Assembly: GCA_963834265.1 (NCBI GenBank)
Contig: CAWIAU010000001.1
Coordinates: 263,572-327,571, forward strand
DNA from: an uncultured bacterium
GTDB lineage: Bacteria > Patescibacteriota > Saccharimonadia > Saccharimonadales > 2-12-FULL-41-12
DNA: 64,000 nucleotides
Reading direction: 5' to 3'
Position 1 is the first letter of the stretch. Every line of letters starts with the position of its first letter. The translations under genes were made by a program, and so were the position numbers. This document shows positions 2,141 through 29,680 of this stretch, piece after piece. The notes under the pieces were generated by a model. That model saw only the letters and a program-made list of their open reading frames with translations, did no database searches and had not been told where the DNA came from.

Positions 2141-2285
2141 AGTCCGAATGGCTTGACGTGGGTCTCTATGAGTCTCTCTGAAATAGTCCATTTTGTTCGT
2201 TAAAAATTTAGATAGTGCAAATCAACGTCAGTTTTTGAATTTGTTTTTTGAATGTCAGTTTACTGACGCTAAGAATTAAATTCTT

Positions 2286-3754
<1,469 letters not shown>

Positions 3755-3944
3755 CTAGGGAGAAAACTAGCACAAAATCGTAGCAATACATTTTGGAGCT
3801 AGGTCGGTCTTGGTACATCGTGAAATCAGTACTGACGATGTACATTTCCTTCATTATTGCTTGCGAGAATGAAGGACGAGATATCAGTTTCTGTAATATA
3901 GACTCGCACGTTTGATTTGCACTATCCAGATTTTTAACTAATAA

Positions 3945-3971
3945 GCGCCCCATGCGATAGGGTGCTTTTTT
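3945..3971 (+). terminator. rho-independent terminator downstream of 16S
   Basis: Stem GCGCCC (3945-3950) pairs with GGGTGC (3960-3965, one G-U pair) and is followed by T6 (3966-3971). It lies just after the 16S 3' processing-stem strand. Confidence 0.6.
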
Positions 3972-4015
3972 AGTACTCATGGTTAGCGGATAAAAATTTG
4001 CTATGCTGAGCCTAA

Positions 4016-4498
4016 ATGGCAGAGATAACACCCACTCCCCGAAAGCATAAATGGCATAATCTGGGAACTGATTTACTAAAAGTTACGGTAGCTGCCTTTT
4101 CAGATAGAATTGGTGATCAGCCGGGCGATTTATCTTTGGAGAGTTACGAAGCTAGCTTATTAAAGGCACTCCCAGATGCCGCACACCGGAGGCAGCAATT
4201 AATTGCGGGGCTTCAAGACCAGGCATTTGCCCAGCGGTTTCGTGCGCTTCCTTGGAGCAACCAAAATTTCATTGCTGCCCACTTGGCGCAAGCAGGCCCA
4301 ATGAGGGTAGGCCATTTAGCAATCAGGTTAGCGCAATTAGCGGGCGGCGAAACAGAGCACCTTAATGATGCGCATGTAGTTATAAATTTCTACGACACTA
4401 TCCACCGTGCCGATGTCATACCTGCTTTGCAAACCCTCAGTACATTAGTTGTTGCCAACAGTATGGATTTGCCGTCTCGGCATCCTGCTAATTCTTAA
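4016..4498 (+). CDS. hypothetical protein (160 aa)
   Basis: ATG ORF with no competing frame and no family I recognise. An extended -10 (TGcTATGCT, 3999-4007) sits 8 nt upstream of the ATG, suggesting a leaderless transcript. Confidence 0.45.
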   Translation: MAEITPTPRKHKWHNLGTDLLKVTVAAFSDRIGDQPGDLSLESYEASLLKALPDAAHRRQQLIAGLQDQAFAQRFRALPWSNQNFIAAHLAQAGPMRVGHLAIRLAQLAGGETEHLNDAHVVINFYDTIHRADVIPALQTLSTLVVANSMDLPSRHPANS

Positions 4499-4642
4499 GA
4501 AGTTAGCTTGATTTGGCGCTGGCTAGAATTTTAACAAGAAAAGTTCTCTCATGCAGGATGTTTTTAAAATTTATAACGGATCCAAAACTGAAATTATGTT
4601 TCTATACGTGCTACCCTGAACATACGCTCAGCATTTCGAAGA

Positions 4643-4837
4643 TTACAGTGGGCAACTAAATAGATACCTACCTTTATCTTTTATTAATCGTTTACGGTGA
4701 TATTGTGCGAAAGTAACTTCACCCTTAAAGTCCTTGTACTTGATGGGTATTTGACCATTTCTTTTTAAGGCGCTAGATATAAGGCTAATTTTACGCGATA
4801 ATGTACAATCTTTACCATAAATTATCATTTGCATCAA
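4643..4837 (-). pseudogene. degenerate duplicate of the HNH-nuclease C-terminal module
   Basis: Translation ..GKDCTLSRKISLISSALKRNGQIPIKYKDFKGEVTF..RLIKDKGRYLF is about 85% identical to residues ~118-160 of the upstream HNH protein. It lacks the HNH core. Confidence 0.6.
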
Positions 4838-5103
4838 AGTTTCTACTAAAAATTTTTAGATAATTTTATTCTCATTTGCAATAACTTCTCGCAAAAACAG
4901 TTTATCTTTTATTAATCGTTTCGGTGATATTGTGCGGAAAGTAACTTTACCCTTAAAGTCCTTGTACTTGATGGGTATTTGACCATTTCTTTTTAAGGCG
5001 CTAGATATAAGGCTAACTTTACGCGATAGTGTGGGATCCTTGCCATAATTATCATTGGCATCAAAGTCTCTACTGAAAATTTTTAGATGATCTTTATTCT
5101 CAT
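4648..5103 (-). repeat. tandem duplication, 2 x 228 bp (~90% identity)
   Basis: Segment 4676-4875 aligns with 4904-5103 at an offset of 228 bp. The unit covers the 3' third of the HNH gene. Confidence 0.8.
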
Positions 5104-5368
5104 GGCAGTTCTTGCAAAGAGTCGTTAAGTTGGCAAATGTATTACTGCCACCCAAACTCAAAGGTGTCTTATGGTCTACGGTAAGCTCATAATTTTTACC
5201 GCAACTTGTGCATCTATGTCCATCACGTTCCAACACCTTTTGACGAATAGTATCCCAGTAGCCACCTTTCGTAAGTCCTTTACCCTCTACGGGTTGCGTC
5301 CAAATATTAGACGAACTTTTTTCTGAAGCTATAAGGGTCTGCTTTTTTACTGCTGGCTTTGTGGCCAT
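4856..5368 (-). CDS. HNH endonuclease
   Basis: RDGHRCTSCGKNYELTVDHKTPLSLGGSNTFANLTTLCKNCHENK matches the HNH (His-Asn-His) signature with Cys pairs. A basic C-terminal module (IPIKYKDFKGKVTFRTISPKRL) is probably DNA-binding. Confidence 0.85.
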   Translation of the reverse strand: MATKPAVKKQTLIASEKSSSNIWTQPVEGKGLTKGGYWDTIRQKVLERDGHRCTSCGKNYELTVDHKTPLSLGGSNTFANLTTLCKNCHENKDHLKIFSRDFDANDNYGKDPTLSRKVSLISSALKRNGQIPIKYKDFKGKVTFRTISPKRLIKDKLFLREVIANENKII

Positions 5369-5448
5369 TCTAAATTAGTTGCTTTACCACCGTATAGCTC
5401 TTTATTGTCAGCTTCTTCCAGTCGTATGACAGTATCCATTTGTGGTTA

Positions 5449-5939
5449 TTATAGCTGAACCACGGGCTTTTGATAGAGAGCGGAGGTTGGTAAGTATTGT
5501 GTGAATTCTTTTGTGGCGATTTGTTTGAAGCCTTGGCTTGCGTAGTAGGTGCAAAGACTTATATTCTTCACATTGCAGTCTAGCCGCAGGTATTTTCGCT
5601 TCTTGCTTGTAACCTGCTCGGCTGTCCACTCGATGATTTGTTTGCTAAGTTGCTGGCCATGGTAACCGTCAGCGATGGCGAGACGGTGAATGTATCCGGC
5701 ATTATTTTCCTGATCATCCTCCCATGCATCCTCGTTCCACTCTAACGCTACTGTTCCTGCAAGATTATTTGTACGATAAGTACGCGCAAAAATGTGCTGC
5801 TGACAATCAAACGTATAATTCCATCGTTGCTAGAGCCATTTTTCCACAATCATCGTATTTATGATTGTATTTTGCACTTGTTACGAAAAGCTAATATAGT
5901 TTTTATATCATGAATACTCGCAGGTAGAACATTAATCAT
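5449..5939 (-). pseudogene. GNAT N-acetyltransferase, disrupted
   Basis: The N-terminus MINVLPASIHDIKTILAF.. starts at ATG 5939 and hits a stop at 5859-5861. A second in-frame stop lies at 5830-5832. The downstream frame reads ..AGYIHRLAIADGYHGQQLSKQIIEW..LRLDCNVKNISLCTYYASQGFK.. (GNAT acetyl-CoA motif) to the stop at 5449-5451. Confidence 0.7.
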
Positions 5940-6360
5940 ACTTTTAGTATACAAAAATAGCTGGTGAATATGCTTCTGCACGATGTAGACAGTTGGCTGG
6001 AGCTTAACAGCAGAATAGAGAGCCTCCGTGACCCGCAAGGACAATTCGATCTTTTTGCTCCCGTATTTTTGTAGTGTATTTGTCGTAGCAGGTAGCAAGG
6101 AGCATCCAGATGTCGGAATCGCTTCGCTTTCTTCCGGATAATCTGTAGATGTAGCGGCGACTGTGCCGTAACAATTTTGTCAACTTCGGAAAGCATTCTA
6201 TAATGTATTGTTCGGCCAGTGCTTCAGTTATCATTTCTTCTGTTTCGCCACCGTGAGTTCGCTCTAATTCAAGTTCTTCAGCCTCTGTTAAGCGCTCGTT
6301 GGAAAGCTTAAGTTGATAACATCTTTCCGTGACTTAAGACCCTGCCGTATTATGCTAATG

Positions 6361-6748
6361 TTAGTCGGCACATCCTTGACCGCCTTGGTTCGTTACAAAA
6401 GCAAAGTCAAAGTGATTGTCTTCGAATGGAATGTTTAGGATTGTACCTTGCTGGTTGTGAAGCGATTTCCAGCCCCAGCCTGCCTGTTTTCTTCCTGACC
6501 CATCTCTACCAGAAATTCAAGAAGCTCGACCCCTTCAATGCGGCAGCCAGTGCGAGCTAAAAGTTTACGACTTAAACCACCATTGGCGCAGCCAATGTCT
6601 AGTACCGTCAATGTTTGCTAACACCGTGTTTTGCAGCGAGGTTTAATATTGTATCCCTGGGCGGGGGATTACAGCTGATATCTCCTTCGTCGTAAAGATC
6701 CCCAACTCCTTTGGAGTATACGTCTTTTGCTTCAATTTTATTTGTCAT
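6361..6748 (-). pseudogene. class I SAM-dependent methyltransferase, frameshifted and truncated
   Basis: ATG at 6748 gives MTNKIEAKDVY..AAKHGVSKH*. Motif I VLDIGCANGG lies in another frame. ILNIPFEDNHFDFAFV (post-II/III region) lies in a third frame. That implies at least 2 frameshifts. Confidence 0.7.
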
Positions 6749-6943
6749 AGCTAATTCAGCCTTTCTGAATAATTAAAAAAGTGTTTTCAATGAATTAGCT
6801 CTGAATCATGATGAGTATATTGTAACAGGGGACGATTAGAGAGTAAAAGTACATCTCTGCAATCATTTTCGGATGTTGACGTAATTCAGTAACTCTAAGC
6901 ATAATGAGTGCGGATGAAACAAGAATATTGATTTGAAGCTAAC

Positions 6944-7200
6944 GTGGAGCTTTTCACGCAGGATGACGGCTGGCACTACGCTAAAGTTGCAGCCAAACTC
7001 AGTAAACCCTGGAAATTCTGGCAGACCGTGGGTTGATTGCTGTTCAGGCTACCGTTGGCATGTCATCGTGGCTAACATCACTTTTGCCATACGGCGACGG
7101 TTCGCACTTTATTGCCCTGCCTGCCAAAGTACGTAAAAAAGAGAGTATCGGGTTAGGGGATATGATGAAGATCAGCTTTGAACTTCGCGAACGTAAATAA
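6944..7200 (+). pseudogene. DUF1905-like small protein, frameshifted
   Basis: One frame reads VELFTQDDGWHYAKVAAKLSKPWKFWQTVG*. Around 7025-7035 the reading shifts to ..VQATVGMSSWLTSLLPYGDGSHFIALPAKVRKKESIGLGDMMKISFELRERK*. The family assignment is from memory of the DUF1905 pattern. Confidence 0.5.
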
Positions 7201-7342
7201 GCAGGAATTAGGCGAAGAGGGACAAACTCAGTATGTTAAATGCTGATTCTTTAATTTGATAATTAAAGTATGAATGGAGTTTGTAGCTAAGAATTAAGAA
7301 ACACAAGAAAACGGATTTCAATGTTTATATTTAAATAACTTA

Positions 7343-7371
7343 TTGACAATTTATCCATTAATATATATAGT
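7343..7371 (+). promoter_or_regulatory. near-consensus sigma70 promoter
   Basis: TTGACA (7343-7348), a 17-nt spacer, then TATAGT (7366-7371). Confidence 0.55.
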
Positions 7372-7407
7372 TTGAATGTTATTTTAAGTATATTTTTGGA
7401 GATAGAA

Positions 7408-7872
7408 ATGGCTTTTAAAAGAGCAGATGCCGAAAGAAGAGGACTAGAAAAAGGTACAGTAGTTTACTTTATTGATGGAGAAAATGATTATATAGATTCC
7501 GATTCAGATCGGAAAGTTGTCAAAAAAGGAGTTTTGACCGAAGATCCATCCAGAAAACATTTTCCCTCGGTGATAATTCAAAAGTCACCCGAACAAGGAA
7601 TCAACGAAACTGGATTAGGAGTATCAAAATCTCACGATGAAATATTTACTGGTCATGAAATTATATCAGCTTTGAACCGCTATGGCAGACTACCAGTCAA
7701 CGGCGAACTACCCGATAATGCGGTAGGTGAAATAGACAATATCATTACCAACCCGCTAGGTAATTACATGTTAGTAATGGTTTTGGGCAGCATGGCGGCG
7801 ATAAGTCATCAAAGTGAGCATATCGGAATAGATGGGTTCGCCGAAACAGGTATGCCTAAGCTACCTAGCTAA
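7408..7872 (+). CDS. hypothetical protein (154 aa)
   Basis: ATG at 7408 is preceded by GGAGAT, 30 nt downstream of the promoter. The longer TTG-start ORF from 7372 would begin within or upstream of the predicted transcription start. AT-rich and no recognisable family. Confidence 0.5.
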   Translation: MAFKRADAERRGLEKGTVVYFIDGENDYIDSDSDRKVVKKGVLTEDPSRKHFPSVIIQKSPEQGINETGLGVSKSHDEIFTGHEIISALNRYGRLPVNGELPDNAVGEIDNIITNPLGNYMLVMVLGSMAAISHQSEHIGIDGFAETGMPKLPS

Positions 7873-7883
7873 TATTTTTGATT

Positions 7884-8009
7884 TGGTGGGCGATGAGGGA
7901 CTCGGTCACGTTCCGCGACCCCGAAACTTGCGTCTTTGAAAACTAGTTTCCAAGAGAATATTTCCTTGCGAAATGCCACTGGCATTTCTCACCTCCGGCC
8001 TCGTCATTA
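7884..8009 (-). pseudogene. 3' portion of a disrupted tRNA-Ile paralog (with an 86-nt insert in the T-loop)
   Basis: 7884-7904 is identical (21/21) to the 3' end of the intact tRNA-Ile (8057-8077). 7991-8009 matches the anticodon 3' stem, variable region and T stem at 18/19. The two pieces are separated by 7905-7990. Confidence 0.7.
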
Positions 8010-8056
8010 GCTCCGGATAAAGTACCGGATATATTTAACAATCAATGAATCTCAAC

Positions 8057-8133
8057 TGGTGGGCGATGAGGGACTCGAACCTCCGACCTCGTCATTATCA
8101 GTGACGCGCTCTAACCAGCTGAGCTAATCGCCC
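8057..8133 (-). tRNA. tRNA-Ile (anticodon GAU), CCA encoded
   Basis: Hand-folded cloverleaf: acceptor GGGCGAT/ATCGCCC, D arm GCTC-AGCTGGTTA-GAGC, anticodon arm CGTCA-CTGATAA-TGACG, T arm GGAGG-TTCGAGT-CCCTC, then ACCA. Confidence 0.93.
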
Positions 8134-8173
8134 ACAGTTGAGAGATATTGATTCTACATTGTTAAATAGCATC

Positions 8174-8204
8174 GACGCGCTCTAACCATCTGAGCTAATC
8201 GCCC
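8174..8204 (-). pseudogene. 5' portion (positions ~1-31) of the disrupted tRNA-Ile paralog
   Basis: The tRNA-matching part of this fragment has a single mismatch to its counterpart in the intact tRNA-Ile (8103-8133). With 2 nt of flank, 8174-8206 vs 8103-8135 is 32/33. Similarity ends at the anticodon stem. Confidence 0.7.
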
Positions 8205-8496
8205 ACGTTTTTGTGAAGTAATGTGGTGGAGACGCCAGCCTTGCGGCTAGCATCCCCATAAATTAATAGTGAGCGGCGGGACAGCTGACTTCGTCCTTTT
8301 CCACTGCAGCCATGCATCACTACGTTCTTCCCTGTGATGCTCGATAAAATTGAGTAAACTCCATTTTATCTGCGCTTCTCGTTCACCGGAGCGAGCTCCT
8401 GTGCGTGGCTTTGCTTCACCGAACCCCGTCCTTCGGACATTCGGGGTTCTCGTAACACTTAACCAAATTCTTTATGCCTGGGAGGCATATATAATT

Positions 8497-8573
8497 TGGT
8501 GGAGCGACGGGGACTCGAACCCCGGACCCCCTGCTTGCAAAGCAGGTGCTCTAGCCAACTGAGCTATCGCCCC
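8497..8573 (-). tRNA. tRNA-Ala (anticodon UGC), CCA encoded
   Basis: Cloverleaf: GGGGCGA/TCGCTCC with the G3-U70 identity pair, anticodon arm CCTGC-TTTGCAA-GCAGG, T arm CGGGG-TTCGAGT-CCCCG. Confidence 0.95.
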
Positions 8574-8774
8574 TCGTACCAAATATAGCTGTAATTGGGG
8601 TCTTAAGCCCAAAGTTACCTCAGTAATTCTACAGAAAAACCTCTGATACCACAAGGTAAGTCAATGGGAAGGTGGTCCAGGTGTTAAATTATATGCGCAG
8701 TATAACTAATTTATGCTTACCAGCCTAAATTGTAACAGCTACCAAACTGTAGTAATTTTGGCATCACAAAATGC

Positions 8775-8803
8775 TTGACCGCCCCTGTTATTCTTGCTAA
8801 GCT
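8775..8803 (+). promoter_or_regulatory. candidate promoter for the 23S-5S unit
   Basis: TTGACC (8775-8780), a 17-nt spacer, then TAAGCT (8798-8803) with a TGc extension. It shares the cTTGACC -35 with the 16S promoter. Confidence 0.45.
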
Positions 8804-9102
8804 ATAGGTTACCTTGAGTTTAGGCCCGAGATTTAGTTTCTAGACCTCCAGCGTAAACTTCAGGTTCAAGCAGTTAAGGGTGAGATTATTACCTTGTGCT
8901 CATAAGAATCCGGAGTTTTGTAACTTAAAAATTTGGCTGACATTAGTTTTAAGAGTTTACTAGAGCAGTAAACTCGAAATATAAACGGCATTGTTATTGG
9001 TTATTACCAATAACTAGTCAAATGCATAATGTAATGAGTCGCCGAAGGCAATCATCAAATCAAAGCGTTTTCGAATTTACTTCGAAAAAAGCTTTTCTTC
9101 TT

Positions 9103-9160
9103 AGGAAAAAGAGCAGCGCAGCGATGAGAAAAAACCTGAGGTTTTGTCTCATTATGTTCG
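9103..9160 (+). repeat. structured motif copy A (immediately upstream of the 23S 5' end)
   Basis: AGGAAAAAGAGCAGC-GCAGCGATGAGAAAAAACCTGAGGTTTTGTCTCATTATGTTCG. Homologous to copies B and C. Confidence 0.7.
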
Positions 9161-9439
9161 TAAAAAGTTAATTAAGCGCACAAAATGGATGCCTTGACGT
9201 AAGATACCGATGAAGGACGTAGAAGGCTGCGAAAAGCTTCGGGGAGCTGCCAATCAAGCTTTGAACCGAAGATATCCGAATGGGGAAACCCGGGTAGAGT
9301 AATGTCTATTCACCCGTAATTGAATTCATAGATTACGTGGCGGTAACCGTGGGAACTGAAACATCTTAGTACCACGAGGAAGAGAAAGTAAACAACGATT
9401 CCGGAAGTAGTGGCGAGCGAAACCGGAATAGCCCAAACC

Positions 9440-9655
9440 TTTTATTACTTTCGCACTCTTCACTCCGTGATTAAGCAATGAGAATTGCTGGTCCGTAGTG
9501 ATGAGTGTGAATAAGCTGGTAGGCGAATGTATAAGAGGGGTTGTGACATCACAAAAACCTTTTGTGGAAGTCCGGATTTATCCGGGTTTCTGCATAAGGG
9601 AGCAGGATCTACCATGTCCTGCATAAGGTTACAAATTGCTGAGCAAGTAGAACAG
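9440..9655 (+). other. 23S domain I expansion (~170 nt more than E. coli)
   Basis: About 215 nt lie between conserved GCGAAaccGGaatAGCCCA and GGAAAGacagGcc. My recalled E. coli alignment has about 45 nt there. Confidence 0.55.
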
Positions 9656-11040
9656 TTTGGAAAGACAGGCCAGAGACGGTGATAGCCCGGTATATTAAGT
9701 TTCAGCAACCTTATAATTTGTTTTGTCGAGTAAGTCGGGGCACGAGAAACCTTGACCGAATCCGGGACGACCACGTCCCAAGGCTAAATATATCTTACGA
9801 TCGATAGTGTACAAGTACCGTGAGGGAAAGGTTAAAAGAACCCCGTGAGGGGAGTGAAATAGATCCTGAAATTATGTGCGTACAAGGACTCGGAGCGGCT
9901 TTAGGGCTGTGACGGGGTGCTTTTTGTAGAACGATCCAACGAGTTACTGATATGTGCAAGCGTAAGTTATCTGACGGACGCGTAGTGAAAGCGAGCCTGA
10001 ATAGGGCGTGGAGATTTATCTCTTTAGTACATGTTAGTAGACCCGAAACCAAGTGACCTATCCATGGGCAGGTTGAAGCGTCGGTAAAACGACGTGGAGG
10101 ACCGAACCGTAGGGTGTTGCAAAACCCCCGGATGACCTGTGGATAGAGGTGAAATGCCAATCGAACTTGGAGATAGCTGGTTCTCCTCGAAATAGCTTTA
10201 GGGCTAGCGTTATGTTGTAGCAAGTGGGGGTAGAGCTCTGTTTCGGAATGGGGCCCGCAAGGGTACCCACCCTTGACAAACTACGAATACCATTTGTGTA
10301 ATCATGGCAGTTAGAACGTCGGTGCTAAGATCGGCGCTCGAAAGGGAAACAGCCCAGACCATCAGCTAAGGTCCCTAAATATACACTCAGTGGGAAACGA
10401 GGTGAGATTTCTTAAACAATGAGGATGTTGGCTTAGAAGCAGCCATTCATTTAAAGAGTGCGTAACAGCTCACTCATCAAGAGATCTTGCGCGGAAAATG
10501 TAACGGGGCTCAAGTGTATTACCGAAGCTATGGGTTCATATTTATATGAGCGGTAGAGGAGCGTTCCTCTCTGCGTTGAAGTGGAACTGTGAGGTTCTGT
10601 GGAGCGTGAGGAAGTGAGAATGTTGGAATGAGTAACCATAAGGCAGGTGAGAATCCTGCCCACCGAAAGAGCGAGGTTTCCTGGGCCACGATAATCGTCC
10701 CAGGGTTAGCCGGGCCTAAGCCGAGGCGCGTAGCGTAGGCGATGGACAACGGGTTAATATTCCCGTGCCGGCTGTGAATTGTTTGAAGTGCGCGGCATGT
10801 TAGCAAGAGCGGGTTCATGGTTATATCCGTCTAAACAGCGTAACAACTGTGAATGAAACGGTCTTTACTGATCGAATTCTTGTGAGGGTGCTGACCAGAA
10901 AAGCTTTCAAACGCGTGTTCACGGTTGACCGTACCGCAAACCGACACAGGTGCTCAGGTCGAGAAGACCAAGGTGTACGAGTGATTCTTCGTTAAGGAAC
11001 TCGGCAATACAGCGACCGTAACTTCGGGATAAGGTCTGCC

Positions 11041-11301
11041 CCGTCACAGTGTTTATCACTGCGGCTTGAGAATGTAGCGCCAGTTTTCTTTTCAGAAAAC
11101 AACAGAAGCGATGATGAGTTTTTAACTTCTCTAAAGTCGCCCTGTATAAACGAGTAAAAAAGATTCTGTCTGATACTTCAATTCCTTCGCCGGAAGCTTC
11201 GGCTTTGGCATGGAAGCGATAGTGTCCGATAGAATTTCATTGAGATTGAGAAGAAAGCTGACCTCTATAAGCACATACTTTGGTAAGTACTGTGACGGGG
11301 C
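11041..11301 (+). other. 23S helix-63-region expansion / possible intervening sequence (~260 nt)
   Basis: Closed by an 11-bp stem CCGTCACAGTG (11042-11052) / TACTGTGACGG (11289-11299). It replaces a helix of about 45 nt between GGGAtAAGG.. and ..AACTGTTTAccAAAAACACAG. Confidence 0.6.
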
Positions 11302-12181
11302 CGCAGCTAAGGAACCCATGGAACTGTTTACCAAAAACACAGGTCTCTGCTAACACGAAAGTGGATGTATAGGGGCTGACTCCTGCCCGGTGCCGGAAGG
11401 TTAAGGGGAGCGCTTTACGGTGCGAACTGAAGCCCCGGTGAACGGCGGCGGTAACTATAACCGTCCTAAGGTAGCGAAATTCCTTGTCAGGTAAGTTCTG
11501 ACCTGCACGAATGGAGTAATCATATGGGTACTGTCTCAACGAAGAGCTCGGTGAAAGTGCATTGACGGTAAAGATGCCGTCTGTCCGCAGCAGGACGAAA
11601 AGACCCTGTGCAGCTTTACTACAGCTTGACATTGAATCGAGCTGCAACATGTGTAGTATAGTTGGGAGACTTTGAAGCCCGGACGCTAGTCCGGGTGGAG
11701 TCGTTAGTGAAATACCAACCTTGTTGTAGTTTTATTCTTACCGAACCCTTTATGGGTAAATAAGATATTTATTTTGTTTATCTATACAGGGTTCGGAACC
11801 GTGTCTGGTGGGTAGTTTAACTGGGGCGGTTGCCTCCTAAAGAGTAGCGGAGGCGTTCAAAGGTTGGCTAGTTACGGATGGAAATCGTAATGATAGTGCA
11901 TACGCATAAGCCAGCTTGACTGTGAGGCCTACAAGCCAAGCAGGGACGAAAGTCGGAGTAAGTGATCCGCTGTCCTTACATTTATGTAAATGAACGTGGG
12001 ATCGACAGCGCAAACGGATAAAAGTTACGCCAGGGATAACAGGCTTATAGCGCCCAATAGTTCACATAGACGGCGCTGTTTGGCACCTCGATGTCGGCTC
12101 ATCTCATCCTGGAGGGGGAGCACCTTCCAAGGGTCCGGCTGTTCGCCGGTTAAAGAGGTACGTGAGCTGGGTTCAGAACGT

Positions 12182-12595
12182 AAATTACATTGCGTTCTAC
12201 TCTCGAGAGGGAGTAATGTGCTGATTAACATCGAATCATTAGCACTAAAACTAACTAAAATCGGTGAAACCCTATCTGGATTCGAACGTTCTAGAGGGCG
12301 ATACCGAGGGTAAGCGCCAGTGTAATGCTGGTTTGATCCCGTAGAGACTGATCTGGAAAACTTGCCTAGTAAGCATGTGGAACAGTGAGAATGATTGCTT
12401 TTGCAAGATTTCATACGTTAGCCCCTTAACTATTACAACTTAGGTTAAGGGTGAAGATATAGTCCACGCCAATAGTAATATTGGATAAAGCTCGCTCTTT
12501 GTCTTAATAGGGAAAAGGAGCAGCCCGACAAAATGTATTCCATTTTGCCGGCGCGATGAGGAAAAACCGCAGGTTGTTCCTCATGAGTGTACGTG
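12182..12595 (+). mobile_element. group I intron (414 nt, no ORF) inserted after 23S U2593 (E. coli numbering)
   Basis: The exon junction restores GGGTTCAGAACGT|CGTGAGACAGTTCGG. The 5' exon ends in U and the intron ends in G (12595). The internal guide GCGTTCT (12192-12198) pairs with exon AGAACGT, including a U-G pair. An S-element AAGATATAGTCC-like core (GAAGATATAGTCC ~12453-12466) and a P7 partner AGAGACTGA are present. Confidence 0.85.
12509..12595 (+). repeat. structured motif copy B (3' terminal domain of the group I intron)
   Basis: AGGGAAAAGGAGCAGC-[26-nt hairpin]-GCGCGATGAGGAAAAACCGCAGGTTGTTCCTCATGAGTGTACG. Confidence 0.7.
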
Positions 12596-13050
12596 CGTGA
12601 GACAGTTCGGTTTATATCCGCTGTGGACGTCAGGAAATTTGAGAGGATTTGCCCCTAGTACGAGAGGACCGGGGTGAACGCACCGCTGGTGTACCAATTG
12701 TCATACCAATGGCATCGTTGGGTAGCTATGTGCGGAACAGATAAGCGCTGAAAGCATATTAAGCGCGAAACTGACCTCAAGATTAGATTTCCCTATGAGG
12801 GCCCTGATAGACGATCAGGTTGATAGGTACACGGTGTACGCATAGCAATATGTTTAGCCTAAGTATACTAATAGCCCCACAGATTTTTTGTGAACCATGA
12901 GACCAATTTACTTCGGTGAGTTGATCTCATGGGAATGTATTTGGCTAGTTATTTGTAGTAACTAATAAACAACGTCCGTTTATATTAACTTTTGTCAGTC
13001 ATATCGACACCACATGGACACCGAGTGAGTGAGACTTACGCCTCCCTCCC

Positions 13051-13162
13051 TCGGTGCCCATGGCGCGAGGGAAACACCTGTTCCCATCCCGAACACAGCA
13101 GTTAAGCCTCGCAGCGGTTACAATACTTGGGTTTTAACCCTGGGAAAATAGCACGGTGCCGA
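13051..13162 (+). rRNA. rrf: 5S ribosomal RNA
   Basis: Helix I TCGGTGCC/GGTGCCGA. Conserved CCCATCCCGAACACAGCAGTTAAGCC (loop B/helix III region). 112 nt. Confidence 0.9.
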
Positions 13163-13173
13163 TTTATATAGAA

Positions 13174-13198: not shown

Positions 13199-13361
13199 TA
13201 TAAATACGCGTCTTTGTGCTCACGCCAACGGCGGGACCTGCACGGCTTGTCCACCCCCAAATTCTGAAGCGAGAAGAGAGGAAATACCTCTATTTCGAGT
13301 ATCAAGGTTTTGGTGCTGGGTGCCGAATTTTGCGCTAAAGCCACCTGAGAGGGTGGCTTTT

Positions 13362-13443
13362 CGCTTTAATGAGAGAACCGGGATAGGTTCTCTCATCGCG
13401 CGGCGTGTGCGGATGAACCGCCCACTCCGGCTGCTCTTTCCTG
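13362..13443 (-). repeat. structured motif copy C (inverted, 200 nt downstream of 5S)
   Basis: The minus strand reads CAGGAAAGAGCAGC-[28-nt hairpin]-GCGCGATGAGAGAACCTATCCCGGTTCTCTCATTAAAGCG. Confidence 0.7.
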
Positions 13444-13506
13444 ACAGCGGAACCAAAAAGAGGGAAGTAAATTCCCACTTTTTGTAATTTATATTTTGAA
13501 ATCACC

Positions 13507-18826: not shown

Positions 18827-21800
18827 ATGCTTTCTCAGCGACCACGATTCTATAACCTGTTGGTTAGGGGTAAATCCCTGGCATTAGTTTTCCTGCTCCT
18901 GTTTCTGACAGGAGTTTTTTCTTATACGCGCACGCATACACCTACGCCCGTATACGCGGCTACCTCTGCTAATATCAATTTTCAGGCCCGGCTCCAGTCA
19001 GCCAGCGGAGCTATCGTTCCGGACGGCAACTATCACATGGAGTTTAAACTTTATACATCTGCCAGCGGTGGCTCAGCTGTTTGGACTGAGACCCGAAGTA
19101 CCGGTAACCTAGTCAGAACAGTAAACGGTTATCTGACAGTAAATCTTGGCAGCGTAAACGCCTTTCCTTCCGGAATGAACTGGGATCAGGAACACTGGCT
19201 GACCATGAATGTTGGCGGAAGTGGCGGCTCTCCGGTCTATGATGGCGAAATGACACCCCGGCTCAAACTTACAGCCACACCGTACGCCTTTAGTGCCGGC
19301 CAGCTTCGCAAAACCCTTGGTGCAAACACCAGTGTCCTGGACTTCCTGAACCCGACTGCTAACAGGACGCTTAATCTACCGGATCAGGACGGTACTCTTT
19401 GTGTTCAGGGATCACCTGATTGTGTTGATGTGGCTACCACAGGGACTACTGCCACGACATCAAGCAATTCCGGATTGGAGATCGGTATTGATGGATTACG
19501 GCTATTGGGAGGTTGTAGCGATAACCAGTCACTCAAATGGGATGCAACCGCAGAAGAGTGGAAGTGTACCTCAGGTAGCGGATCGTCAATCGGCGTCCGT
19601 GAAAGCGACGGATCGCCCAGCATGTCAGCCGATGTTATAGAGTTTGGCCCGTCAGGCGCATCTGACAGCGAATTTATTGTTACGAACGAAGGCAGTGGTG
19701 TCAGCAGGATACGATTAGGAAACGACGTACTATTGCTCACTAACTATGCCGCTACACTCGACGCTACCTACGTAAACGAATCCCAGTCGCCGGCCGCCGG
19801 CGATGTCTCCGGTTCATTCACAGCCGGTTTCAGTGTTAACGATGTCCAGAACAATGCCGTTGATCTGGGAGCCGAGACAGTCGGGGACTACATGGCCAAC
19901 CTCGGCACCGTAGTCGGATTAACTATTACAGGCACTAACAGTGGCGAAGGCAGTACGCCGGGCCTTAGTGTTACTTACGGATTCGGTGCTAACACCGCCG
20001 TACAGGGCAGCACCCAGCTTACCTGTGCTTCCGGCAGTGGTGATCTGTCCGGTGGCGGCACTGTCATAACTCTGGGCAGCGGCGGTACCTGCGGTGCCAT
20101 AACCATATCCGAAGCCCCCGTCTTTGATACCAGCGTTACCACCCCGCTTATTACTTACGGCGGCGCCCTGACCATCCAGACCACCGCTACCGGTGGCGCT
20201 GATGATCTGATCTTTAAAACCGCCGGCACGGAAGTTATGCGCCTGCTGGAAAACGGCAATATTTATCTGGAGAAAGGCACTAATGATGTCACCATAGCCG
20301 TAAATGCTCCCGGTGCCGCCGCCACCTACACCTTTGACGGAGCCAGCGGAACTATCCTGACCACTGCCAACTACGTTACTAACCTCGACGCTACCTACGT
20401 AAACGAATCCCAGTCGCCGGCCGCCGGCGATGTCTCCGGTTCATTCACAGCCGGTTTCAGTGTTAACGATGTCCAGAACAATGCCGTTGATCTGGGAGCC
20501 GAGACAGTCGGGGACTACATGGCCAACCTCGGCACCGTAGTCGGATTAACTATTACAGGCACTAACAGTGGCGAAGGCAGTACGCCGGGCCTTAGTGTTA
20601 CTTACGGATTCGGTGCTAACACCGCCGTACAGGGCAGCACCCAGCTTACCTGTGCTTCCGGCAGTGGTGATCTGTCCGGTGGCGGCACTGTCATAACTCT
20701 GGGCAGCGGCGGTACCTGCGGTGCCATAACCATATCCGAAGCCCCCGTCTTTGATACCAGCGTTACCACCCCGCTTATTACTTACGGCGGCGCCCTGACC
20801 ATCCAGACCACCGCTACCGGTGGCGCTGATGATCTGATCTTTAAAACCGCCGGCACGGAAGTTATGCGCCTGCTGGAAAACGGCAATATTTATCTGGAGA
20901 AAGGCACTAATGATGTCACCATAGCCGTAAATGCTCCCGGTGCCGCCGCCACCTACACCTTTGACGGAGCCAGCGGAACTATCCTGACCACTGCCAACTA
21001 CGTTACTAACCTCGACGCTACCTACGTAAACGAATCCCAGTCGCCGGCCGCCGGCGATGTCTCCGGTTCATTCACAGCCGGTTTCAGTGTTAACGATGTC
21101 CAGAACAATGCCGTTGATCTGGGAGCCGAGACAGTCGGGGACTACATGGCCAACCTCGGCACCGTAGTCGGATTAACTATTACAGGCACTAACAGTGGCG
21201 AAGGCAGTACGCCGGGCCTTAGTGTTACTTACGGATTCGGTGCTAACACCGCCGTACAGGGCAGCACCCAGCTTACCTGTGCTTCCGGCAGTGGTGATCT
21301 GTCCGGTGGCGGCACTGTCATAACTCTGGGCAGCGGCGGTACCTGCGGTGCCATAACCATATCCGAAGCCCCCGTCTTTGATACCAGCGTTACCACCCCG
21401 CTTATTACTTACGGCGGCGCCCTGACCATCCAGACCACCGCTACCGGTGGCGCTGATGATCTGATCTTTAAAACCGCCGGCACGGAAGTTATGCGCCTGC
21501 TGGAAAACGGCAATATTTATCTGGAGAAAGGCACTAATGATGTCACCATAGCCGTAAATGCTCCCGGTGCCGCCGCCACCTACACCTTTGACGGAGCCAG
21601 CGGAACTATCCTGACCACTGCCAACTACGTTACTAACCTCGACGCTACCTACGTAAACGAATCCCAGTCGCCGGCCGCCGGCGATGTCTCCGGTTCATTC
21701 ACAGCCGGTTTCAGTGTTAACGATGTCCAGAACAATGCCGTTGATCTGGGAGCCGAGACAGTCGGGGACTACATGGCCAACCTCGGCACCGTAGTCGGAT

Positions 21801-24800
21801 TAACTATTACAGGCACTAACAGTGGCGAAGGCAGTACGCCGGGCCTTAGTGTTACTTACGGATTCGGTGCTAACACCGCCGTACAGGGCAGCACCCAGCT
21901 TACCTGTGCTTCCGGCAGTGGTGATCTGTCCGGTGGCGGCACTGTCATAACTCTGGGCAGCGGCGGTACCTGCGGTGCCATAACCATATCCGAAGCCCCC
22001 GTCTTTGATACCAGCGTTACCACCCCGCTTATTACTTACGGCGGCGCCCTGACCATCCAGACCACCGCTACCGGTGGCGCTGATGATCTGATCTTTAAAA
22101 CCGCCGGCACGGAAGTTATGCGCCTGCTGGAAAACGGCAATATTTATCTGGAGAAAGGCACTAATGATGTCACCATAGCCGTAAATGCTCCCGGTGCCGC
22201 CGCCACCTACACCTTTGACGGAGCCAGCGGAACTATCCTGACCACTGCCAACTACGTTACTAACCTCGACGCTACCTACGTAAACGAATCCCAGTCGCCG
22301 GCCGCCGGCGATGTCTCCGGTTCATTCACAGCCGGTTTCAGTGTTAACGATGTCCAGAACAATGCCGTTGATCTGGGAGCCGAGACAGTCGGGGACTACA
22401 TGGCCAACCTCGGCACCGTAGTCGGATTAACTATTACAGGCACTAACAGTGGCGAAGGCAGTACGCCGGGCCTTAGTGTTACTTACGGATTCGGTGCTAA
22501 CACCGCCGTACAGGGCAGCACCCAGCTTACCTGTGCTTCCGGCAGTGGTGATCTGTCCGGTGGCGGCACTGTCATAACTCTGGGCAGCGGCGGTACCTGC
22601 GGTGCCATAACCATATCCGAAGCCCCCGTCTTTGATACCAGCGTTACCACCCCGCTTATTACTTACGGCGGCGCCCTGACCATCCAGACCACCGCTACCG
22701 GTGGCGCTGATGATCTGATCTTTAAAACCGCCGGCACGGAAGTTATGCGCCTGCTGGAAAACGGCAATATTTATCTGGAGAAAGGCACTAATGATGTCAC
22801 CATAGCCGTAAATGCTCCCGGTGCCGCCGCCACCTACACCTTTGACGGAGCCAGCGGAACTATCCTGACCACTGCCAACTACGTTACTAACCTCGACGCT
22901 ACCTACGTAAACGAATCCCAGTCGCCGGCCGCCGGCGATGTCTCCGGTTCATTCACAGCCGGTTTCAGTGTTAACGATGTCCAGAACAATGCCGTTGATC
23001 TGGGAGCCGAGACAGTCGGGGACTACATGGCCAACCTCGGCACCGTAGTCGGATTAACTATTACAGGCACTAACAGTGGCGAAGGCAGTACGCCGGGCCT
23101 TAGTGTTACTTACGGATTCGGTGCTAACACCGCCGTACAGGGCAGCACCCAGCTTACCTGTGCTTCCGGCAGTGGTGATCTGTCCGGTGGCGGCACTGTC
23201 ATAACTCTGGGCAGCGGCGGTACCTGCGGTGCCATAACCATATCCGAAGCCCCCGTCTTTGATACCAGCGTTACCACCCCGCTTATTACTTACGGCGGCG
23301 CCCTGACCATCCAGACCACCGCTACCGGTGGCGCTGATGATCTGATCTTTAAAACCGCCGGCACGGAAGTTATGCGCCTGCTGGAAAACGGCAATATTTA
23401 TCTGGAGAAAGGCACTAATGATGTCACCATAGCCGTAAATGCTCCCGGTGCCGCCGCCACCTACACCTTTGACGGAGCCAGCGGAACTATCCTGACCACT
23501 GCCAACTACGTTACTAACCTCGACGCTACCTACGTAAACGAATCCCAGTCGCCGGCCGCCGGCGATGTCTCCGGTTCATTCACAGCCGGTTTCAGTGTTA
23601 ACGATGTCCAGAACAATGCCGTTGATCTGGGAGCCGAGACAGTCGGGGACTACATGGCCAACCTCGGCACCGTAGTCGGATTAACTATTACAGGCACTAA
23701 CAGTGGCGAAGGCAGTACGCCGGGCCTTAGTGTTACTTACGGATTCGGTGCTAACACCGCCGTACAGGGCAGCACCCAGCTTACCTGTGCTTCCGGCAGT
23801 GGTGATCTGTCCGGTGGCGGCACTGTCATAACTCTGGGCAGCGGCGGTACCTGCGGTGCCATAACCATATCCGAAGCCCCCGTCTTTGATACCAGCGTTA
23901 CCACCCCGCTTATTACTTACGGCGGCGCCCTGACCATCCAGACCACCGCTACCGGTGGCGCTGATGATCTGATCTTTAAAACCGCCGGCACGGAAGTTAT
24001 GCGCCTGCTGGAAAACGGCAATATTTATCTGGAGAAAGGCACTAATGATGTCACCATAGCCGTAAATGCTCCCGGTGCCGCCGCCACCTACACCTTTGAC
24101 GGAGCCAGCGGAACTATCCTGACCACTGCCAACTACGTTACTAACCTCGACGCTACCTACGTAAACGAATCCCAGTCGCCGGCCGCCGGCGATGTCTCCG
24201 GTTCATTCACAGCCGGTTTCAGTGTTAACGATGTCCAGAACAATGCCGTTGATCTGGGAGCCGAGACAGTCGGGGACTACATGGCCAACCTCGGCACCGT
24301 AGTCGGATTAACTATTACAGGCACTAACAGTGGCGAAGGCAGTACGCCGGGCCTTAGTGTTACTTACGGATTCGGTGCTAACACCGCCGTACAGGGCAGC
24401 ACCCAGCTTACCTGTGCTTCCGGCAGTGGTGATCTGTCCGGTGGCGGCACTGTCATAACTCTGGGCAGCGGCGGTACCTGCGGTGCCATAACCATATCCG
24501 AAGCCCCCGTCTTTGATACCAGCGTTACCACCCCGCTTATTACTTACGGCGGCGCCCTGACCATCCAGACCACCGCTACCGGTGGCGCTGATGATCTGAT
24601 CTTTAAAACCGCCGGCACGGAAGTTATGCGCCTGCTGGAAAACGGCAATATTTATCTGGAGAAAGGCACTAATGATGTCACCATAGCCGTAAATGCTCCC
24701 GGTGCCGCCGCCACCTACACCTTTGACGGAGCCAGCGGAACTATCCTGACCACTGCCAACTACGTTACTAACCTCGACGCTACCTACGTAAACGAATCCC

Positions 24801-27388: not shown

Positions 27389-27451
27389 AGAAGACTTGAT
27401 TAATTGTTGTTATTTTACTATGCTAAACATAAGAAAAAAGAAGGGAACACT

Positions 27452-27922
27452 GTGGCCAAAACCGATAAAGACAATGATGTTTCAATAAAAAAAACCAGAA
27501 GACTCAAGATGGAGATCAAAAAAGCCCACCTGATAATAATGGCTTTGTTGCTGATTATGGCCGGTGGCGCTTATTTTGGCTATCAGAAATACGATGAAGT
27601 AAACCAGGAGAAGCAGCGTTTATCTGATCCTCAGGAAGCGGCCCGTCAGGAAACCCAGCGAACTAAAGAGCAAGTTGCAAAGCTTATAGATGTACCCCAA
27701 GGCGAGGATCCGACAATCGCAAGTGTGGTCGATGCCTCAAAGTTATCCAATCAATCGTTTTTTAAGAACGCAAAAAATGGTGACAAGGTACTTATGTATG
27801 CCCAAGCCAAAAAAGCTATCCTGTATCGTCCTGACTCCAATAAGATTATAGAAGTCGCACCGATCAACATCGGTAACAACGAACAGCCAGCCGCACCAGC
27901 AGGTACTGAGACGCCACAGTAG
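27452..27922 (+). CDS. single-pass membrane protein, partner of giant 1 (paralog of 41342-41974)
   Basis: GTG at 27452 follows GAAGGGA. Alternative starts are TTG 27404 and ATG 27509. TM segment AHLIIMALLLIMAGGAYFGY. The C-terminal domain ..PTIASVVDASKLSNQSFFKNAKNGDKVLMYAQAKKAILYRPDSNKIIEVAPINIG is about 55% identical to its paralog. Confidence 0.65.
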   Translation: MAKTDKDNDVSIKKTRRLKMEIKKAHLIIMALLLIMAGGAYFGYQKYDEVNQEKQRLSDPQEAARQETQRTKEQVAKLIDVPQGEDPTIASVVDASKLSNQSFFKNAKNGDKVLMYAQAKKAILYRPDSNKIIEVAPINIGNNEQPAAPAGTETPQ

Positions 27923-28228
27923 GTAAACCGGTTCTTTCGATAAAGAGCCAAATCAGTGTTCTTCCGACGAAGAACCAAGTCGATACTTTTGTCTCCAGCA
28001 ACAAAAGTACCCAAAAACGCCGCAGGCGGCCGGAGATTCTTTATGATCTCATCGTCAAAACACACAATGCTCGGCAAACTCACCAATTTTTAACTATTTT
28101 CAATGAGAAATTGGCTTAAACACTGCCTCGGCTCTAATTGTGCTTATTGACACTCTTTCATCAGGAATCCCCAGCAAGCCTGAACAAATCCATGGACTAC
28201 GCATTTTACAGATGAGAACAAAACTATG

Positions 28229-28257
28229 CTTGCATATTTATAGTTTTTATGCTAATA
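28229..28257 (+). promoter_or_regulatory. strong candidate promoter (leaderless arrangement)
   Basis: TTGCAT (28229-28234), a 17-nt spacer, then TGcTAATAT (-10 at 28252-28257). The ATG lies 8 nt downstream, at 28265. Confidence 0.55.
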
Positions 28258-28264
28258 TGTATTT

Positions 28265-28669
28265 ATGTCTAAAAATTCAGCTCCCAACCAACTAAAACCC
28301 CTAACCATACATCCTGAAACTGCCGTAGAGCTTTATGGAGCCGGCGTCCGCCGACTTCGCAAACCTAAACCGATGACTACCCCTAATGGACTTGATACTA
28401 ACTCTTTAGATTTCCGTGGCGTTCGTGCTGCCATGGACGTTGTCGGCGTATTTCCCCATACATATGATGCTGACGGCCGTCGCAATCCAGTAGATCCAAA
28501 TGAAGTAAAAACTCATATGGACTCGAGCTTGGCCACAATTAGAGAAGCTGGCCGCGTTCCGTTGGCTGATGATTTCGTTGGAGGCTATAAACGTATGACA
28601 GAAGCGTTCACTCGTCCACAAGAGCCAATAACACCCGCAGAACAAATTCACATAACGCAACGGCAATAA
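28265..28669 (+). CDS. hypothetical protein (134 aa)
   Basis: ATG ORF directly behind the promoter. No recognisable family. Confidence 0.5.
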   Translation: MSKNSAPNQLKPLTIHPETAVELYGAGVRRLRKPKPMTTPNGLDTNSLDFRGVRAAMDVVGVFPHTYDADGRRNPVDPNEVKTHMDSSLATIREAGRVPLADDFVGGYKRMTEAFTRPQEPITPAEQIHITQRQ

Positions 28670-29680
28670 GCCTAAAACTTTTAGCACAATGTTTATCTCC
28701 AGATAAGTACTTACTTATTGATGACGAGCTTTAACCCAACAACGGGCGGGCTTTTGTATTCTCAGCTCCTCCGAAGTGACAAAAATCTTATAGATCAAAA
28801 CGTCTTATACTTGGTGTTGCGGGAAGAGTTTTTCAGAATCGTCGTGATTTAGACGGTCCAGCTGGGCAAAATCTACCAATGCCAGCCTAAGCCAGTTTGT
28901 GGGCAAGGATGTGGATTGATTGAGCGGCGTTCTAGAAGGTCGTACAATAATGTGGTTTACAATTTAGCAAAATGTTATTTGGTGAATACCTTTTGTGGTA
29001 TAACCGTAAATTCGGGTATACCAAATAATGTATAATTTTGGAAATCCATAATTTATTTAAAATTGATTTTGAGCTACTTTATTATGAATTTTAGTGTCCG
29101 GAATTTGTATTTTCGATATCTTAAATTCTAATTTCTTACCAGAAATAATTACAACGTTAAGATTTCGCAGTCTATTATTTTCGATCATTATCAAAATATC
29201 CATTTAATTCTGAGCAATTTTGTAATTAGCAACGTCCTCTACCGAGCTTAGTAGAGTAGTCTGTGGAAAAATCATAAAAAAAGACATTGTATAATATACT
29301 TTCTGATTCCGCAGATTGAACCAAACGATTATATACCTGAAGTAAATATACAAACACTTGAGGCTAAGTACTCCTATCTGTTATGGAATCTTTTGCCAAG
29401 TTCGAAACCAACCTAAACAACGGGTCATAGAAATAAAATTAAATACATGTTGAGTACAGCTGAAAATTCCTGCCGGAACAGGAATAATAGGTCAGTTCTG
29501 TCGTATAGGGTAGTCTGTGTACAAAAATATTTACCTCTGTTATGGAATGTAATGCTAATGTTTTCGTCTGAGTACAAAAGTAGTACATTGGTATTGCATA
29601 GGTCACCCCTAATGCTTACACTAAGCATTAGCTTTCATAACAGATTAAGCAGCATAAAGTTGAACACAAAATAAACTCAA

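Follow-up and report, generated by a model that had tools for sequence, protein, structure and literature searches.

Group I introns recur at position 2593 of the large-subunit (LSU) rRNA, a nucleotide (n.2593) that lies within stem-loop 2588-2606 adjoining the peptidyl-transferase centre and is the site of the homing endonucleases I-CreI and I-MsoI (PMC3315327). In bacteria of the candidate phyla radiation (CPR), position 2593 (23IS12) is a recurrent insertion site whose insertions predominantly encode LAGLIDADG_1 proteins (Tsurumaki et al. 2024, PMC11270868); the L2593 introns of thermophilic cyanobacteria combine short P2 and P5 helices with P7.1/P7.2 (Haugen et al. 2007, PMC1995217); and the LSU/2593 introns of DPANN archaea belong to subgroup IA3 and include members of 306-397 nucleotides (nt) without an open reading frame (ORF) (Nawrocki et al. 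2018, PMC6125680). Here we describe a 414-nt insertion (positions 12182 to 12595, plus strand) at this site in the one 23S rRNA gene seen in a 64,000-nt stretch of contig CAWIAU010000001.1, hereafter the window, whose host belongs to the Saccharimonadia (TM7, CPR). Judged from Rfam, MAFFT, BLAST and covariation, the insertion as a whole is very probably best explained as an ORF-less LSU-2593 group I intron of apparent IA-type architecture, with a ribozyme of about 310 nt and, in its 3' tail, about 100 nt of nested repeat. Introns of this kind are already described from CPR bacteria, cyanobacteria, DPANN archaea and chloroplasts. As one more ORF-less member, the window intron is routine, and any novelty would lie in the nested repeat alone.

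The window intron resembles the CPR 23IS12 introns and the cyanobacterial L2593 introns in its site, short P2, short P5 and P7.1/P7.2, and it shares with the former the host super-group and relatives that carry LAGLIDADG_1 in P6. Unlike both, it has no endonuclease ORF and holds a nested repeat in its 3' tail, and its host belongs to a lineage in which the 23IS12 survey recorded almost no rRNA introns, 64 of 66 Saccharibacteria rRNA insertions having been short and non-intron (PMC11270868). With the introns of Chlamydomonas reinhardtii (Cr.LSU, encoding I-CreI) and Monomastix (I-MsoI) it has in common n.2593 (PMC3315327), the group I class and relatives that encode a single-motif LAGLIDADG enzyme of about 160 amino acids (aa). 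Set beside Cr.LSU without direct sequence comparison, it differs in its bacterial host, its lack of an ORF and its exon, UUCAGAACGU. The chloroplast exon at LSU 2593 reads ...CAAAACGU. The DPANN introns match it in site and in the ORF-less size class of 306-397 nt, and their hosts are likewise ultrasmall and known mainly from metagenomes; the window host, by contrast, is bacterial, and the IA3 label would apply to its intron by analogy with same-site introns.

The insertion interrupts the 23S rRNA gene exactly at position 2593

The 23S gene (9161-12892, plus strand) was delimited by a match to the Rfam LSU model that spans 3732 nt, compared with a model length of 2925 nt, which leaves about 800 nt of insertions within the gene. 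In the Rfam alignment, a 420-nt unaligned gap separates ...GGGUUCAGAACGU from ACAGUUCGG, and alignment with Escherichia coli rrlH by MAFFT places a 414-nt insertion immediately 3' of E. coli U2593; the boundaries proposed in an earlier, sequence-only reading of this DNA, by which removal of 12182-12595 restores the gene at LSU U2593, were thus found to be exact. The 5' exon ends in AGAACGU (12175-12181, E. coli 2587-2593), and the 3' exon starts with CGUGAGACAGUUCGGU (12596-12611, E. coli 2594 onward), as seen in the sequence and in both alignments. The uninterrupted junction GGGTTCAGAACGTCGTGAGACAGTTCGG was found in five related contigs without the intron (L127, L182, L200, L209 and L213), i.e., intron-less alleles carry the predicted ligated junction. 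Compared with fetched loci, the window rRNA exons are 88-92% identical to those of Saccharimonadales or Saccharibacteria and about 74% identical to those of non-CPR bacteria.

The signatures of a group I intron that the sequence-only reading had listed are all present. The 5' exon terminates in T12181 and the insert in G12595; the guide GCGTTCT (12192-12198) is complementary to exon AGAACGT (12175-12181), the U12181-G12192 wobble included; the core element GAAGATATAGTCC stands at 12453-12465; and in a P8-like hairpin CCCTTAAC (12423-12430) pairs with GTTAAGGG (12444-12451). The complete internal guide, UUGCGUUCU (12190-12198), forms the 3' strand of P1 and pairs with 12175-12183, setting G12192 opposite the splice-site U12181; P1 is paired in 22 of 22 family members, and its U-G pair is invariant in the same 22. 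At the other end, the 3' terminal segment GUACGUG (12589-12595) closes with G12595, the terminal (omega) G, and all complete family introns among the matches listed end in G.

In a local search of 601 nt, the Rfam group I model (Intron_gpI, RF00028) aligned over its full length, 1-253, to 12172-12485 with 38.2 bits and an E-value of 3.2e-8. This E-value, together with 83% identity over 315 nt (E = 1e-92) to a same-site insert elsewhere, that of the Patescibacteria metagenome-assembled genome (MAG) L060, the closest relative among the matches listed, takes the observation beyond chance. A group I intron at LSU 2593, as first proposed, is borne out by exact position, Rfam match, family membership and core covariation that extends to the P3/P7 pseudoknot, and on this sequence evidence the insert is almost certainly a group I intron. 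The extent given to it earlier requires correction: the group I core stands, and the last ~100 of the 414 nt belong to an independent repeat, a copy of which is nested there.

The intron core is conserved and covaries across the family

We aligned 22 ORF-less members of the family (alignment A1) and added the P7 pseudoknot by hand to the RNAalifold structure before pairs were counted. RNAalifold recovered P1, P2, P3, P4, P5, P6, P8 and P9. Over the 52 pairs of P1-P9 and P7, standard pairs filled 98.1% of 1144 cells, compared with 35-44% when the 3' partner was slid by one to three columns; 23 of the 52 core pairs were changed on both sides, and the observed values were reached in none of 500 column shuffles. 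Compensatory changes fall mostly in P2, P5a and P9, and P4, P7 and J8/7 are almost invariant.

Following the insert along the plus strand, P2 (12198-12215) is a hairpin with the GNRA loop GAGA (12205-12208), in which six of seven pairs show compensatory changes and the G and final A of the loop are invariant. Next come a variable hairpin, P2.1 (12218-12245; fold z -2.8, also seen in the alignment), which is missing in some relatives, and the 5' strand of P3, CUAAC (12251-12255), which pairs with GUUAG at 12417-12421 and has compensatory changes in three of its five pairs. The P4-P5 domain (12261-12307) comprises P4 (12261-12266/12302-12307) and P5 (12270-12272/12296-12298), both nearly invariant in the 22 members, and P5a (12276-12280/12290-12294), all five pairs of which are compensatory. 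P6 (12308-12310/12338-12340) and a short P6a hairpin together occupy 33 nt (12308-12340) at the location of the LAGLIDADG ORF of relatives; P6a is common to the closest listed relatives with compensatory changes (CCAG/CUGG versus UUAG/CUAA).

The 5' strand of P7 (12344-12349), a G, a bulged A and GACU, pairs with AGUCC at 12461-12465 in a putative guanosine-binding helix that forms a pseudoknot with P3. P7 is 100% paired in the 22 sequences, with a single G-C to U-A double change in L117, and its G12346-C12464 pair adjoins the bulged A12345, which is the predicted guanosine-binding arrangement. A 67-nt P7.1/P7.2 extension (12350-12416), lying between P7 and the 3' strand of P3, consists of an outer stem (12353-12355/12383-12385), an inner hairpin (12360-12365/12373-12378) and P7.2 (12395-12398/12403-12406); it shows compensatory changes among the window, L052, L055 and L060, and its single-sequence fold is not significant. 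P7.1/P7.2 are a hallmark of IA-type introns. The remaining core strands are the P8 hairpin CCCUUAAC/GUUAAGGG (12423-12451), supported by sequence, Rfam and pair count; J8/7 with the 3' strand of P7, UGAAGAUAUAGUCC (12452-12465), a conserved catalytic-core strand that matches the Rfam consensus and is nearly invariant; and the P9 hairpin (12469-12484), with the GNRA loop GUAA (12475-12478) and compensatory changes in four of six pairs, beyond which the Rfam match ends at 12485. L2 and L9 are GNRA loops across the family, with invariant G and A, and such loops are the usual sign of tertiary docking.

The intron belongs to a family in which some long members encode endonucleases

One genome per prokaryotic species was scanned with the pattern GGGTTYAGAACGTN{4,30}GCGTTCT, which joins the exon end to the guide over 4-30 nt. 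The scan returned at least 119 loci, and about 100 of the matches listed carry a homologous insert at the same site, its terminal G standing directly before CGTGAGACAG in every listed match with a locatable 3' exon. Among the matches listed, insert sizes are about 270-420 nt for ORF-less and about 700-810 nt for ORF-bearing introns, with a few intermediates of 474-565 nt. After L060, the nearest listed relatives are the Saccharimonadales introns of L052 and L055, 82% identical to the window insert, and that of L047, 75% identical over its full length. The hosts are mostly Saccharimonadia and other CPR bacteria, about one-third of the matches listed being labelled Saccharibacteria or Saccharimonadales. 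Saccharimonadia MAGs thus commonly carry LSU-2593 introns, and this sequence evidence indicates that such introns are commoner in Saccharimonadia than the sole systematic survey reported (PMC11270868).

Introns with the same 7-nt guide also occur in MAGs labelled Omnitrophota, Planctomycetia, Gammaproteobacteria, Saganbacteria, Dormiibacterota and Clostridia (among L002-L120), and a few archaeal MAGs (Promethearchaeota, Bathyarchaeota) likewise carry L2593 introns with an identical guide; some of the non-CPR labels may be binning errors. A sub-lineage (L063, L057, L066, L079, L090 and L023), found in MAGs labelled Gammaproteobacteria, Gottesmanbacteria or Patescibacteria, is marked by the P1 loop AAATCTCATT/AAATCTTATT.

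The longest ORF wholly within the window insert has 44 aa (12272-12406, minus strand), in agreement with the earlier statement that none exceeds about 45 codons; two longer ORFs (107 and 129 aa) merely overlap the insert and extend into the rRNA exon. By comparison, the 66 listed relatives of at least 565 nt have a median longest ORF of 162 aa, at intron positions ~110 to ~650, located from the P5/P6 region to just before P7. The ORF of L043, the only LAGLIDADG candidate scanned, matched Pfam LAGLIDADG_1 (E = 4e-13), and a LAGLIDADG motif was present in four of five inspected translations (L043, L034, L022 and L005). A minority of long relatives encode a 23S_rRNA_IVP protein instead, for example L063, the one such ORF scanned (Pfam E = 3e-27); 23S_rRNA_IVP is a four-helix-bundle protein.

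Related Saccharimonadia show introns with intact ORFs, decayed intermediates of 474-565 nt, clean ORF-less introns and uninterrupted sites. Together these states suggest a homing cycle, in which the window intron would most likely be a survivor of gain, endonuclease decay and loss among LAGLIDADG-bearing relatives. The sequence-only reading had left two histories for the endonuclease, lost or never present; its absence from the insert is upheld, and the same-site LAGLIDADG relatives and the intermediates favour loss. Lacking an endonuclease gene, the intron would be unable to home alone. The suggestion that a nearby free-standing HNH protein acts in trans found no support: the gene is real (4856-5368, minus strand, in the 16S-23S stretch; 170 aa, Pfam HNH E = 2e-12), nothing ties it to the site, and the family enzymes checked are LAGLIDADG proteins.

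Predicted splicing and the alternative of an unspliced relic

In the splicing pathway that we propose, P1 would form between the guide (12190-12198) and the exon end (12175-12181) of pre-23S rRNA, the U12181-G12192 pair marking the 5' splice site, and the P3-P9 core would fold, with L2 and L9, both GNRA loops, and P7.1/P7.2 stabilising it. A free guanosine held in P7 would attack after U12181; the terminal G12595 would then take the same pocket, and the freed exon end would attack after G12595, so that the exons would be rejoined as ...GGGUUCAGAACGU|CGUGAGACAG... in the helix adjoining the peptidyl-transferase centre. We infer splicing because the core is intact and covarying and because the site lies in stem-loop 2588-2606 beside that centre (PMC3315327).

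Several points weigh against this interpretation. Splicing in vivo, its mode and the history of the endonuclease are all predictions from sequence. The score of 38.2 bits falls below the RF00028 gathering score of 50, so that the covariance-model check suggested earlier gave a significant E-value and a result short of the curated threshold. The whole-window Rfam scan at gathering thresholds did not call the intron because of this shortfall, and standard annotation would miss it. The general Rfam model lacks P7.1/P7.2 and the tail insertions, which are aligned there as inserts; with the gathering threshold missing an intron such as this one, annotation pipelines may undercount the family. The sequence shows no convincing P10, the helix in which the P1 loop would pair with the first bases of the exon, and the IA-type label is assigned by analogy, from the P7.1/P7.2 layout rather than from subgroup-specific models. 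With some 100 nt of nested repeat lying close to the 3' splice site, the second step could be slowed or impaired. Finally, a group I intron in the 23S rRNA of Simkania has been reported as unspliced, according to a title cited in the CPR survey (PMC11270868, ref. 28).

An alternative is an insert that is group I by descent and no longer spliced, being either kept in the mature 23S rRNA as an expansion or removed by host RNases that leave the 23S rRNA in two pieces. Besides the Simkania precedent, as cited in that survey, the same 23S rRNA tolerates other insertions (187 nt after E. coli 286 and about 220 nt at 1708-1768), and copies of the nested repeat are also present in intervening sequences of helices 25 and 45 that are not introns; such sequences are excised by RNases in other bacteria. 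However, every strand of the catalytic core is intact, as are the U-G pair, the terminal G and the two GNRA loops; these features are conserved, through compensatory changes, among hosts whose rRNAs are about 88% identical, which is unexpected for a dead ribozyme; and a 414-nt insert next to the peptidyl-transferase centre (PMC3315327) would probably not be tolerated. We consider an unspliced relic improbable and retain the reading of a spliced, ORF-less group I intron.

A three-hairpin repeat is nested in the intron tail

The distance from P9 to the terminal G is 111 nt in the window intron, compared with about 9 nt (AUNAACAYG) in minimal relatives. The tail holds a nested repeat (12490-12588, plus strand; fold z -4.8) in which three hairpins (hp1, 12494-12521; hp2, 12523-12554; hp3, 12556-12584) are closed by a stem of GCUC (12490-12493) and GAGU (12585-12588). 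A covariance model, R1, built from 103 copies of the repeat, matches the tail at 12505-12597 (plus strand; 73 bits, E = 3e-19) and two further places in the window. The second copy, on the plus strand at 9098-9152 (model match 9098-9165; 45 bits, E = 3e-11), lacks hp2 and ends 8 nt before the 5' end of the 23S gene at 9161; no consensus promoter was found upstream of it. The third, on the minus strand at 13356-13449 (57 bits, E = 1e-14), lies beyond the 5S gene and is followed by a GC-rich hairpin.

The repeat in the intron tail is shared by the L047 intron only among the genome loci listed and by the L218 intron only among the metagenome loci listed, so that the composite of intron and repeat is kept in three diverged genomes. 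Its closing stem is compensatory among them (GCUC/GAGU in the window, ACC/GGU in L047, AAC/GUU in L218), and the repeats of the window and L047 (7127-7219) share about 95% identity, though their intron cores share only about 75%. Since its own stem closes the repeat, the 3' splice site would stand about 12 unpaired nt from P9 (about 9 in minimal relatives); the closed repeat would thus behave as an extra peripheral helix that leaves the 3' splice site near P9.

The repeat is found outside introns as well. BLAST detected a 91% identical copy in the helix-45 intervening sequence of the L119 23S rRNA (L119:1420-1513), and the L2593 intron of L119 itself is without the repeat. A metagenome scan with the pattern AGCAGCCCGAN{18,30}CCGGCGCGATGA, whose sequence blocks are invariant by construction, returned at least 120 contigs, with about 110 true copies among them (L121-L240), and in at least 100 contigs the repeat stands outside introns. 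The consensus runs hp1 (loop GGGAA(AA)G), AGCA, hp2 (GCCCGA...CCGGCGC), G and hp3 (AUGAGAAA...UGUCUCAU), giving the ~85-nt layout GGGAAAAG-AGCAGCCCGA-[hairpin]-CCGGCGCGAUGAG-[hairpin]-CUCAU. In hp2 and hp3, 11 of 19 predicted pairs are double-changed, several of them in 30-54 of the 103 sequences. G-U pairs outnumber A-C mismatches in the copies (39 versus 18), which hints, weakly, at the sense strand as the functional one. The 103 copies listed contain 72 different hp2 sequences, and the recurrence of the window variant, ACAAAAUGUAUUCCAUUUUG, in at least 15 different genomic contexts implies recent spread, i.e., mobility; many listed copies end ...CUCAUUAC beside variable flanks.

The copies keep to particular surroundings. 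Eighteen listed copies end within 25 nt before a tRNA gene, covering ten specificities, with a gap of 6-9 nt in those read by eye, and others stand directly before 16S (L220) or 23S (L166). Copies within 23S intervening sequences, all in the sense orientation, occur in helix 45 (L141, L200 and L224), in helix 25 (L230), near E. coli 270-360 (L121 and L227) and in the 1700s (L174, L200 and L213); the remaining listed copies lie between ORFs. Helix 45 of the window's own 23S rRNA is normal, and other CPR helix-45 insertions, as seen in a noisy regular-expression survey of their lengths, are unrelated to the repeat. In the species genomes fetched, the repeat model matched only MAGs labelled Saccharimonadales, Saccharibacteria or Patescibacteria, and the repeat appears to be restricted to Saccharimonadia. 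An Rfam search with E-value cut-offs of 1 to 10 gave no family above noise over 12490-12588 and none over ten other copies, a viral contig collection contained no copy, and literature searches by repeat sequence strings and key words found no description of the repeat.

The repeat is a conserved, covarying, multi-copy RNA-like element and a candidate for studies of stable-RNA processing in CPR bacteria. We tentatively suggest, as a possibility short of an even chance, that the ~85-nt element represents an undescribed functional RNA class of Saccharimonadia that rides on discarded parts of stable-RNA precursors, by which we mean the 5' leaders of tRNAs and rRNAs, 23S intervening sequences (helices 25, 45 and elsewhere) and the tail of the window intron. 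If so, the window intron would serve to deliver the element and would be more than an endonuclease-less relic. The role of the element may lie in signalling processing or protection, in antitermination in cis, or in binding protein as a small RNA set free by RNase P or splicing; alternatively, it may be a new self-cleaving motif. Many of the "short insertions" noted in Saccharibacteria rRNA genes may also be copies of it.

Several known classes were considered for the repeat and set aside. A hammerhead, twister, hatchet, pistol or hepatitis delta virus (HDV)-like ribozyme has no Rfam match, and AUGAG is fully paired; resemblance to a signal recognition particle (SRP)-like RNA is limited to a short GCAGCC; a mini-ORF (MYSILPAR) is not preserved in other hp2 variants; and a sigma-70 promoter is disfavoured by the missing -35 element and by the hairpin covariation, which favours a structural role.

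Among described elements, the repetitive hairpin elements (RHEs) of sponge mitochondria (PMC2800124) and the bacterial repetitive extragenic palindromes (REP) and interspersed mosaic elements (BIME) are likewise short, multi-copy hairpins found between genes and in tolerant loops of structured RNA genes, the RHEs being an example of elements that invade organelle rRNA genes and introns. Unlike these, the window repeat has long invariant single-stranded junctions (AGCAGC, CGCG) and three covarying hairpins, and it is strongly biased to the sense strand of tRNA and rRNA precursors.

A further parallel is the IStron, in which an IS200/605 element is fused to the 3' end of a group I intron. As in IStrons, a foreign mobile sequence has lodged in the group I intron after P9 and ahead of the 3' splice site; unlike in IStrons, the lodged sequence is a non-coding repeat of ~85 nt with three hairpins and with no transposase or TnpB gene in the insert, and the intron occupies a classical homing site in rRNA. 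That the 3' repeat is itself an IS200/IS605-type remnant, perhaps a guide-RNA scaffold with the adjoining exon as guide, would fit its IStron-like location, its mobility (one hp2 variant in at least 15 unrelated contexts despite 72 variants among 103 copies) and the shared ...CUCAUUAC ends, but is highly improbable given that no insert ORF exceeds 44 codons, which leaves no transposase and no TnpB/IscB-sized gene (other window ORFs not having been scanned for transposases), that no Rfam IS605 or HEARO family matches, that the copies lie mostly in tRNA and rRNA leaders and rRNA helices in the sense orientation, and that known omega-RNA scaffolds are much longer than ~85 nt.

In a subclass of the repeat (e.g., L136, L163, L164, L201 and L202), a fourth small hairpin with a covarying stem comes directly after the other three, and its GNRA-like loop takes the forms AAGGCGAAGCC, AAGGCGUAAGCC and AAGCGUAAGCGU.

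Other features of the window

The Rfam scan also located a bacterial 16S gene (2285-3754) and a 5S gene (13050-13164), both on the plus strand. The rRNA operon is split, with 5.4 kb (3755-9160) between 16S and 23S; within this stretch the usual spacer tRNAs, tRNA-Ile (8057-8133) and tRNA-Ala (8497-8573), lie on the opposite strand from the rRNAs. The other insertions of the 23S gene, a 187-nt one at 9452-9638, after E. coli 286, and about 220 extra nt in three blocks at 11040-11318, between E. coli 1708 and 1768, matched neither the repeat model nor the group I model; they probably represent intervening sequences or expansion segments. At ~25500-29700 and ~34900-39000, units of ~993 bp recur in tandem, in at least five copies at each place, inside very long ORFs, for example that at 18827-27388 (2853 aa), and these ORFs look like giant repetitive surface-protein genes.

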